Assembly: GCA_038889235.1 (NCBI GenBank)
Contig: JAWAHN010000002.1
Span: forward strand, 403,300-435,299
Reading direction: 5' to 3'
Length of the DNA stretch: 32,000 nucleotides
Source: Candidatus Jordarchaeales archaeon
Lineage (GTDB): Archaea > Asgardarchaeota > Jordiarchaeia > Jordiarchaeales > Freyrarchaeaceae
The notes under the pieces were generated by a model. That model was not told the origin of the DNA. It ran no database searches and saw only the letters and a program-made list of their open reading frames with translations. Each line of letters opens with the position of its first letter. Within the stretch, counting starts at the first letter, position 1. A program made the translations under genes and the position numbers. This document shows positions 29,243 through 31,554 of this stretch, one piece after another.

Positions 29243-29602
29243 CTATGCAGGCGGCTGGTGTGCCGGTGTGCTCGCTGCTCCCCCAGAAGCCCGGGAAGGC
29301 CTCCTCAACATGACCAACGGCTTGTCCGAAACGACTTCAAAGTCAAACTTTTTATACCAGTCGACTAGGTACTCGAAGGTTTCAACTATTATCGTATGGT
29401 CGGAGTGGTCGTCAACTATCCTGGCAAGCAAGACAGTGCCGATCCCCTTATGCCTGTGCTCCCTGCTCACGTTTATCACTTTTATCTCCACGTAACGGTC
29501 GTTTCGCACAACTCTCGCGTATGCTATAACGCCGACTCCATACTCGTCGTAAATCATGTACTCGTAAACTGATTCTTCAACGGCGCACTCAATGCTGTTC
29601 AA
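29243..29602 (-). CDS. GNAT-family N-acetyltransferase
   Basis: Motif A VSREHRHKGIGTVLL and 'WYKKFDF'. Likely start is the TTG at 29602 after GGAGA; the longer track start would overlap the tRNA promoter. Confidence 0.82.
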   Translation of the reverse strand: MNSIECAVEESVYEYMIYDEYGVGVIAYARVVRNDRYVEIKVINVSREHRHKGIGTVLLARIVDDHSDHTIIVETFEYLVDWYKKFDFEVVSDKPLVMLRRPSRASGGAASTPAHQPPA

Positions 29603-29704
29603 CTTGTAACATCTCCTAGGAAGTGATGACTGAACAAACCTTAACTGAAATATAACTGTTGTGGCTAAACCGCACCCGAAAACCCAGCGCGGAGACACCA
29701 TAAG

Positions 29705-29712
29705 TTTTAATA
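29705..29712 (+). promoter_or_regulatory. TATA box of the tRNA-Ser gene
   Basis: TTTTAATA ends 27 nt upstream of the tRNA 5' G, a normal archaeal spacing. Confidence 0.6.
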
Positions 29713-29739
29713 ACTGTTTGTCTCCTCTAGATTCATGGT

Positions 29740-29906
29740 GCGGGGGTAACCAAGCCCGGTTATACCCATGCTGAACGCCGAAAGGTGCTGGCCTGCTAAA
29801 TGAGGCGTGCGCCGTCTCTTGCTGAAAGCCAGTTCCCCGTTGGGGAGCGCGGGTTCAAAACCCCGTGAGGCTAAGCTCTGGGGTGGTAGTCCCGCCCCCC
29901 GCGCCA
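29740..29906 (+). tRNA. tRNA-Ser(GCT) with three introns (29763-29782, 29799-29826, 29860-29889) and encoded CCA
   Basis: Acceptor GCGGGGG/CCCCCGC, G73, CCA; D stem ACC/GGT; anticodon arm CTGGC-CTGCTAA-GCCAG; long variable arm TCCCC/GGGGA; T arm GCGGG-TTCAAAT-CCCGC. The spliced product is 89 nt. Confidence 0.9.
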
Positions 29907-30028
29907 AAAATTGAAAACTGTTACGACTTCTACAGCTGACTACCTTACCCGTGTAAGGAAAAGGTTTTATTCCTTTAGTTTTTGAAAGATTGACGGTAGC
30001 GTTCTGTGTTCCTTCGGAGGATGATGCT

Positions 30029-30706
30029 TTGTCCACCGGTATATTAGAGGGAGTTCATCCAACGCGTATGGAGCTCTTAGCGCTGAAAAGAAGGATGACC
30101 CTAGCCGAAAAGGGGTATGACTTACTAAAAGAGAAGCGCGACGCCCTAGTCATGTACTTCTTCGACGTTCTTGAGGACGTTGGCCGGCTCAGGAGGGAGG
30201 TAAGCAAGGTGCTCAAGGAAGCCTTCGACGCGCTTGTAGTGGCGAAGATGGTCATGGGTCCACTTAAAATCGAGGAAGCCGCCATGAACGCTGAGTCGCT
30301 CTACGACGTCGACGTTTCTCTCCAGAACATCATGGGAGTCAAGGTCCCCTTGCTGAACGTTAAGGAGCGGGAGGCGAAGATGCCGCCATACGGCTTCACA
30401 GACACCTCAGCTGCTCTCGACGAGGCAGCTAAGAAGTTTAAGGAAGCTTTGAAGCTCATCATCCAGCTAGCAGAGGTTGAAACCGCTGTCAAGAAGCTTG
30501 CCAAGGAGATCGACAAGACGAAGAGGCGAGTCAACGCGCTGAAGTACATAATTATCCCAAGACTGGAAAACACCATCCGGTACATATCGCTCCACTTGGA
30601 GGAACGTGAGCGAGAAGACTTCTTCAGACTAAAGCGAGTTAAAACGCTGCTCGAAAGAAAAGAATTGAGAGCGGTTGAAGAGTCTCTCTCCCAGCCTTCT
30701 CTTTAA
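30029..30706 (+). CDS. atpD: A/V-type ATP synthase subunit D
   Basis: PTRMELLALKRR...GYDLLKEKRDAL, NIMGVKVP, KTKRRVNALKYIIIP and LEEREREDFFRLK. Start set to the TTG at 30029 after GGAGG. Confidence 0.95.
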   Translation: MSTGILEGVHPTRMELLALKRRMTLAEKGYDLLKEKRDALVMYFFDVLEDVGRLRREVSKVLKEAFDALVVAKMVMGPLKIEEAAMNAESLYDVDVSLQNIMGVKVPLLNVKEREAKMPPYGFTDTSAALDEAAKKFKEALKLIIQLAEVETAVKKLAKEIDKTKRRVNALKYIIIPRLENTIRYISLHLEEREREDFFRLKRVKTLLERKELRAVEESLSQPSL

Positions 30707-31050: not shown

Positions 31051-31554
31051 TCAAACCTCCAACCTGCCTTCTTTCAGAAAAGACGGGTTCCCGGTTCGCG
31101 TCTTCACAGCGATACCCCTCGAGAAAGCCACCATTTCCTCCCCGTTTAGCACAGCCCTCCCAACGGCAACCAATCTGTCGTCTTCATCCACAACTATAAC
31201 CTCGTCCCAGGGTCTTATCTCCGGGTCAGCTTCAACCACGTGCTTAGCAAAGACACTCCGCCCCTCAGCTACCGCCCTGGCAACCTCTCTCTTTATGACT
31301 GCCCTCAAACGTGGCCTCTGAGTGCTTTTTAAGAGAAGTTCAGCCCCCTTTAACCCCAGCGCTAACGTCCCTTCATCCGACCTAAAACTGGCGATGAGCA
31401 CCCCTCCAAATCGAACCTCCTTGAACCTCCCGGTCCTAGAAGAAAATGAAACCTCAACGTCGTCGGGGAACAGTATTCTTCCAGCTCCGGGGAAAAACTG
31501 GTAGTCTGCTATAAGTCGCAGCTTACGCAAAACCCAGTAGTCGGCTTTCCTCAA
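31051..31554 (-). CDS. PUA-domain protein resembling the C-terminal region of archaeosine tRNA-guanine transglycosylase
   Basis: IADYQF..GAG, TGRFKEV and a C-terminal PUA domain (GRSVFAKHVVEADPEIRPWDEVIVV...AVG). Confidence 0.85.
   Translation of the reverse strand: MRKADYWVLRKLRLIADYQFFPGAGRILFPDDVEVSFSSRTGRFKEVRFGGVLIASFRSDEGTLALGLKGAELLLKSTQRPRLRAVIKREVARAVAEGRSVFAKHVVEADPEIRPWDEVIVVDEDDRLVAVGRAVLNGEEMVAFSRGIAVKTRTGNPSFLKEGRLEV

Follow-up and report, generated by a model that had tools for sequence, protein, structure and literature searches.

The segment 29740-29906 on the plus strand of the window (by which we mean the whole 32,000-nucleotide stretch of DNA that was analysed) is very probably a genuine tRNA-Ser(GCT) gene of Candidatus Jordarchaeum that is interrupted by three introns. 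Joining the four exons (Table 1) gives an 89-mer that ARAGORN identifies as tRNA-Ser(GCT) and folds with a 7-bp acceptor stem, a 3-bp D stem formed by the pairs A10-U25, C11-G24 and C12-G23, a long variable arm with a stem of 4-5 bp, the T loop TTCAAAT, G73 and an encoded CCA. The product has the attributes of a class II tRNA-Ser, namely the serine anticodon GCT, the long variable arm and the G73 discriminator followed by CCA. The cloverleaf recognized by ARAGORN and by a rule-based finder of our own also carries U33, a purine at position 37, T54, T55, C56 and A58, G18 and G19, and A14. The boundaries of intron 1 can be slid by 1 nt and those of intron 2 by +/-1 nt with no change in the product.

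Table 1. Features of the probable three-intron tRNA-Ser(GCT) gene and of the promoter-like block upstream of it (positions are those of the window).
Feature	Positions	Strand	Description
Promoter-like element ACCATAAGTTTTAATAA	29697..29713	+	Nearly invariant in orthologous loci
TATA-like TTTTAATAA	29705-29713	+	Centre ~31 nt upstream of the mature 5' end
Exon 1	29740..29762	+	Acceptor 5' strand, U8, A9, D-stem 5' strand (A10 C11 C12), D loop to position 21; 100% identical in five genomes
Intron 1	29763..29782	+	20 nt, D loop 21/22; hBH-type relaxed BHB
Exon 2	29783..29798	+	D-stem 3' strand (G23 G24 U25), G26, anticodon-stem 5' strand, anticodon loop through A37; anticodon GCT at 29795-29797
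Intron 2	29799..29826	+	28 nt, canonical position 37/38; outer helix is the anticodon stem
Exon 3	29827..29859	+	A38, anticodon-stem 3' strand, long variable arm, T-stem 5' strand, T loop 54-59 (TTCAAA); 96% identity in five genomes
Intron 3	29860..29889	+	30 nt, T loop 59/60; outer helix is the T stem
Exon 4	29890..29906	+	U60, T-stem 3' strand, acceptor 3' strand, G73 (29903), CCA (29904-29906); 100% identical in five genomes

The first-pass annotation of this DNA had proposed that the cloverleaf arises only after the removal of 20, 28 and 30 nt and that the gene would be likely to escape standard annotation. All eight combinations of insert removal were passed through ARAGORN and a tRNA was called in just two of them: that with all three inserts out and that with inserts 1 and 3 out, where the program reports the remaining middle insert as a canonical 28-nt intron of the same tRNA. 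On the unspliced locus ARAGORN called no tRNA, and the Rfam tRNA model gave no match there at the gathering score, nor at E<=10 when run over the whole genome. Our finder, which anchors on the T arm and acceptor stem, tolerates no more than one intron in each arm and accepts non-canonical sites only where a relaxed bulge-helix-bulge (BHB) motif is present, independently placed the same three introns at the same positions. Both proposals are borne out, including the boundaries.

Forty relatives were searched at the DNA level and four of them had the locus: three belong to the same genus and one to the same family. Orthologous loci lie in Candidatus Jordarchaeum sp. LHC_1308, Ca. Jordarchaeia QC4 and Ca. 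Jordarchaeales JZ-1, and a fourth exact-pattern match is in a record named just 'Thermoproteota archaeon'. These Jordarchaeum-lineage records place the genome, that of a hot-spring archaeon previously regarded as putatively Asgard, in the Asgard genus Candidatus Jordarchaeum. In the alignment the inserts occupy the identical three sites in all four orthologues. Across the five genomes the identities of exons 1-4 are 1.00, 0.97, 0.96 and 1.00, and those of introns 1-3 are 0.32, 0.41 and 0.52, with lengths of 14-20, 19-30 and 26-34 nt, respectively. Within the otherwise diverged introns 1 and 3 the strands that pair with the exons are conserved: GCCG of intron 1, the partner of exon CGGT, is kept in four of the five genomes, and the 3' strand of intron 3, TG(G/A)(T/C), keeps its pairing with U55, C56 and A57 of the exon in all five. 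For the relatives with the strongest motifs our finder placed the introns at these three positions too and gave a mature sequence that did not differ.

Two stem pairs that span introns have changed on both sides. In the family-level relative (G004) U29 is replaced by C in exon 2 and A41 by G in exon 3, a compensated change in an anticodon-stem pair that spans intron 2. The A10-U25 pair spans intron 1; since G10-C25 stands there in the Freyrarchaeaceae orthologues and in the Ser(TGA) paralogue, both sides of this pair have changed together. The same comparison agrees with the earlier remark that A10-U25 is atypical. All five Jordarchaeaceae Ser(GCT) genes have this pair (window positions 29749 and 29786) where G10-C25 is usual; the archaeal methylation of G10 could not be made on an A.

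The locus might instead be a decaying remnant or pseudogene broken up by insertions, and the functional Ser(GCT) gene might lie in the 5% of the genome that is missing from the assembly. A Ser(GCT) gene could have been missed, because the assembly is 95% complete and our census of tRNA genes recovered about 21 of the approximately 45 expected. Against this, the exons are 96-100% identical in five species-level genomes and the stem changes are compensated, each relative matches Ser(GCT) at the interrupted gene and nowhere else, conservation extends to the promoter block and nearly all of the other recovered tRNA genes are interrupted too. We regard a remnant as highly improbable. A second Ser(GCT) gene, which the first-pass annotation had raised as a matter to be checked, was absent from the ARAGORN, Rfam and own-finder calls, a single recovered gene having the anticodon GCT; this holds for the incomplete census and assembly just described. 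A crude scan for further anticodon stem-loops of Ser(GCT) produced 306 hits, most of them random, and was replaced by the structured finder.

The splice sites of the three-intron gene were scored for a 4-bp central helix and a 3-nt bulge on each strand, with the cut after the second bulge nucleotide. The first-pass annotation had described each site as a 4-bp central helix between 3-nt bulges. This is correct for intron 1, which has the strict BHB motif: its central helix CGGT/GCCG forms 4/4 pairs, one of them G-U, between the bulges TA|T and AA|A. Introns 2 and 3 lack the strict motif, with 3/4 central pairs each, and belong to the relaxed class only, with strong outer helices; the earlier description of intron 2 was nonetheless exact. 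The pairing CTGC/GCTG of intron 2 contains the U-U mismatch that had been pointed out earlier, and is accompanied by an inner helix of 1 bp and a 6-bp outer helix, the anticodon stem. For intron 3 the pairing TTCA/TGGT and the inner helix CCCC/GGGG (5 bp when written CCCC(G)/(U)GGGG) were correctly recognized, but the mismatch of U54 facing a U was overlooked; U55 forms a wobble with G, and the outer helix is the 5-bp T stem. Intron 2 has the weakest of the three motifs. Its central pairing falls to 2/4 in two of the relatives (G001 and G002), and in the family-level relative the best motif is shifted one nucleotide on with the product unchanged. Given the imperfect central helices of introns 2 and 3, cleavage there would depend on a tolerant enzyme.

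The geometry of intron 1 is as had been claimed, with bulges TAT and AAA, no inner helix, and an outer helix, GCC/GGT, of 3 bp, in which the D-loop GCC pairs with G23-G24-U25 in competition with the D stem. These two peculiarities lend something to the idea of a two-intron gene with an expanded D arm, in which only the 37/38 and T-loop inserts are removed and the mature tRNA keeps the D-loop insert of 20 nt; furthermore, D-arm insertions are the class that annotation most often leaves in 'mature' tRNAs, and tRNAscan-SE often reports such genes in this form (10.64898/2026.10.13.758758). The D-loop insert, however, has lengths of 14-20 nt and an identity of 32% amongst close relatives, while the D-loop nucleotides that flank it are invariant, and the one block of it that is conserved pairs 4/4 in a central helix whose 3-nt bulges fall exactly on the predicted cut sites, in four of five genomes. 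Retention would also produce a D loop of about 30 nt, which is incompatible with the tertiary contacts between G18-G19 and the T loop. A retained insert is therefore very unlikely in our judgement, and we treat the D-loop insert as the first of three introns.

The genome encodes two EndA paralogues, each with both Pfam domains. The catalytic subunit (C1:1056164-1056754, where C1 is a contig of the assembly; 196 aa) matches the Aeropyrum pernix EndA catalytic subunit (3P1Z chain B) at 4e-47. It keeps the Tyr/His/Lys triad, and its KPK aligns with K44-P45-R46 of 3P1Z_B, which contains the CSL loop lysine. In the second paralogue (contig C3, 195 aa) Lys replaces the catalytic His, as would be expected of a structural beta subunit. 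The Crenarchaea-specific loop and its Lys44 give A. pernix EndA a broad substrate range (PMC3241643), and an (alpha-beta)2 EndA with an L1 loop has already been reported in Asgard archaea (Kaneta et al., 2018; PMC5829648). It had been argued that the relaxed motifs need a broad-specificity EndA, and the enzyme classified here as (alpha-beta)2, with the triad and the Lys44 equivalent, fits that argument. The EndA of this genome would be an (alpha-beta)2-type enzyme with a broad-specificity loop. It resembles A. pernix EndA (PDB 3P1Z/3AJV; PMC3241643) in the triad, the Lys44 equivalent and the His-less second paralogue; for the Jordarchaeum enzyme the heterotetramer and the substrate range are predictions. 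An RtcB ligase is also encoded.

From these components we infer the following pathway. The gene would be transcribed as a precursor of about 167 nt, probably from the conserved TATA-like element about 30 nt upstream. The introns of 20, 28 and 30 nt would then be cut at their relaxed BHB sites, at bonds predicted from the motifs, by the (alpha-beta)2 EndA, with the key lysine in the Crenarchaea-type L1/CSL loop of its catalytic subunit, and the four exons would presumably be ligated by RtcB to yield a normal class II tRNA of 86 nt plus CCA. The intron 1 site needs the D-loop GCC to be paired with G23-G24-U25, so the precursor would have to pass through a conformer that is not the cloverleaf. 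A further proposal, which we offer as a speculation that is more probably wrong than right by some distance, is that the D-loop intron is cut only from the GCC/G23-G24-U25 conformer, that with the three-site layout present in at least four genes this imposes on Jordarchaeum an obligatory order of intron removal or a folding helper of a kind undescribed for archaeal tRNA splicing, and that 59/60 is perhaps a universal landing site, the exon half of its motif (T stem plus U54-A57) being identical in almost all tRNAs.

Three raw-read hot-spring metatranscriptomes contained 0 reads on the gene. An RNA-library contig of 2903 nt from a sediment metagenome starts at 29880, inside intron 3, and extends downstream only. 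It runs into the ATP synthase subunit D gene, is about 97% identical and thus from a related strain, and has one base dropped at 29906.

Upstream of the gene the ACCATAAGTTTTAATAA block is nearly invariant in all four of the orthologous loci that have upstream sequence, and the spacer around it diverges. The block looks like a BRE/TATA promoter, a role suggested by what is known of archaeal promoters. The locus is flanked by two genes, one for a GNAT acetyltransferase (29243-29701, minus strand) and one for subunit D of the ATP synthase (29990-30706, plus strand). Further downstream, at 31051-31554 on the minus strand, a stand-alone protein of 167 aa with TGT_C2 and PUA domains, which we take to be the C-terminal module of archaeosine tRNA-guanine transglycosylase, is encoded between a NAC gene and an AAA ATPase gene. 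We considered whether it might be one piece of a split gene and rejected this because these flanking genes are unrelated.

The genome-wide census was based on the strict set of our finder, which needs an intact GTTCRA and recovers about half of the expected tRNA genes. This set comprises 22 loci in the genome against 0 in a reversed-genome control. The control bears on a further explanation, that the locus is no RNA gene at all and is either part of an antisense open frame of 109 aa (29707-30036, minus strand), which does overlap it, or a chance cloverleaf. The frame has no Pfam match and is ruled out by the insert lengths amongst the relatives (for example 20/19/15/14 nt), which differ by non-multiples of three. 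With the finder silent on the reversed genome, we find a non-RNA origin scarcely credible.

A relaxed version of the finder (acceptor mismatches, no U8) gave 27 real and 11 null loci, and the additions were control-like, all with three or four long introns. One of those found only in this way, a 'Stop(tta)' at C1:988560, overlaps the Ser(TGA) gene and was discarded as false. Within the strict set one locus is probably false, a 'His(atg)' at C3:354296 that has four introns, the longest of 108 nt.

About 21 credible tRNA genes were recovered, compared with about 45 expected, and they carry 1.95 introns per gene. Introns occur in 20 of the 21, with two or three in 12 and three in seven; a 59/60 T-loop intron is likewise present in seven. 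The layout of D-loop, 37/38 and 59/60 introns is common to Ser(GCT), Met, Arg(CCG) and His(GTG). In the same 2.14-Mb genome, which is 95% complete, ARAGORN called 14 tRNAs and Rfam 12. When the three Ser(GCT) introns were compared with the whole genome by blastn-short, only self matches and chance 10-13-mers were returned, and there is no evidence from this search for intron transposition or copying.

Several other tRNA genes are miscalled. At C1:481105-481197 and C1:1088321-1088413 ARAGORN reports 93-nt tRNA-Leu(taa) genes that are better read as Ala(CGC) and Ala(TGC), both of which contain a D-loop intron of 16 nt with a central helix of 4/4. The 'tRNA-Gln(ctg)' with a 47-nt intron at C1:988589-988715 (minus strand; locus L013) is actually Ser(TGA), which has two introns, in the D loop and at anticodon-stem position 29/30, and no encoded CCA; it has the acceptor stem, the variable arm and nearly the whole T arm in common with Ser(GCT). 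The only intron-free tRNA found, Arg(CCG) at C6:391-465 (plus strand), lies on a contig of 5.7 kb with 41.6% GC and duplicates a three-intron Arg(CCG) at C1:487194-487347; this contig may come from another organism, the contamination estimate for the assembly being 3.3%.

The gene had been thought to extend multi-intron tRNAs to the Asgard archaea. That inference fails because two reports already describe multi-intron tRNA genes in this group. In Freyarchaeia and Atabeyarchaeia, introns are present in 92-95% of tRNA genes, often at non-canonical positions, and more than half of the genes have several (Valentin-Alvarado et al., 2024; PMC11291895). The second, a bioRxiv preprint of October 2026 (Goswami et al.; 10.64898/2026.10.13.758758), names the family: it gives 2.0-2.4 intervening sequences per tRNA gene, and up to five, for Jordiarchaeaceae and Freyrarchaeaceae, finds a two-subunit EndA in most genomes, describes repeated intron gains and notes that tRNAscan-SE misses 30% of the intervening sequences, mostly in the D arm. 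The Ser(GCT) gene is typical of its genome and lineage, a clean example of a published feature and not a discovery.

Taken singly, the gene is of small import, one more case of the extreme tRNA intron load in Jordiarchaeia. Nevertheless, since ARAGORN and the Rfam model miss it and several other tRNAs are miscalled, inferences on codon usage or tRNA complement in such genomes call for curation that takes introns into account. Its four orthologues and clean boundaries would also make the gene a convenient substrate for studying an Asgard (alpha-beta)2 EndA on three relaxed motifs.

The nearest points of comparison are the Ser(GCT) genes of Freyrarchaeaceae in the same order (loci L006-L008). 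They are orthologous, with a similar variable arm and T arm and with the T-loop intron at 59/60, so this site is common at the order level. They differ from the Jordarchaeum gene in having G10-C25 in place of A10-U25, an anticodon-stem intron at 29/30 in place of the canonical 37/38, and a D-loop intron that is absent (genomes G007 and G008) or at a different D-loop site (G006). Of the Ser(GCT) introns, those at 37/38 and 21/22 were seen only in the Jordarchaeaceae genomes examined. Recurrence of the 59/60 intron, including that in Freyrarchaeaceae, may be explained by the near-universal exon half of the motif (T stem plus U54-A57). The distribution of the Ser(GCT) intron sites within the order fits the repeated gains described in the preprint (10.64898/2026.10.13.758758).

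Two- and three-intron tRNA genes in Thermoproteales were reported by Sugahara et al. (2008), as cited in PMC11291895 and 10.64898/2026.10.13.758758. They too have BHB-type introns in the D, anticodon and T loops and an (alpha-beta)2 EndA with the L1/CSL loop; they belong to another phylum, and related introns recur across their genes, which the preprint attributes to transposition. The three introns of Jordarchaeum Ser(GCT), in contrast, have no paralogue in the genome by blastn-short.

The multi-intron tRNA genes published for Jordiarchaeia (Freyrarchaeaceae plus Jordiarchaeaceae) as well as Atabeyarchaeia represent the same lineage, matched at the family level, and share with Ser(GCT) several short introns at canonical and non-canonical sites. 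As in the present genome, where most of the recovered tRNA genes are interrupted, many of them by two or more introns and at non-canonical sites, their D-arm introns are missed by annotators. The 1.95 introns per gene of our census compare with 2.01 reported for Jordiarchaeaceae, and between the published genes and the Ser(GCT) locus there is no essential difference.
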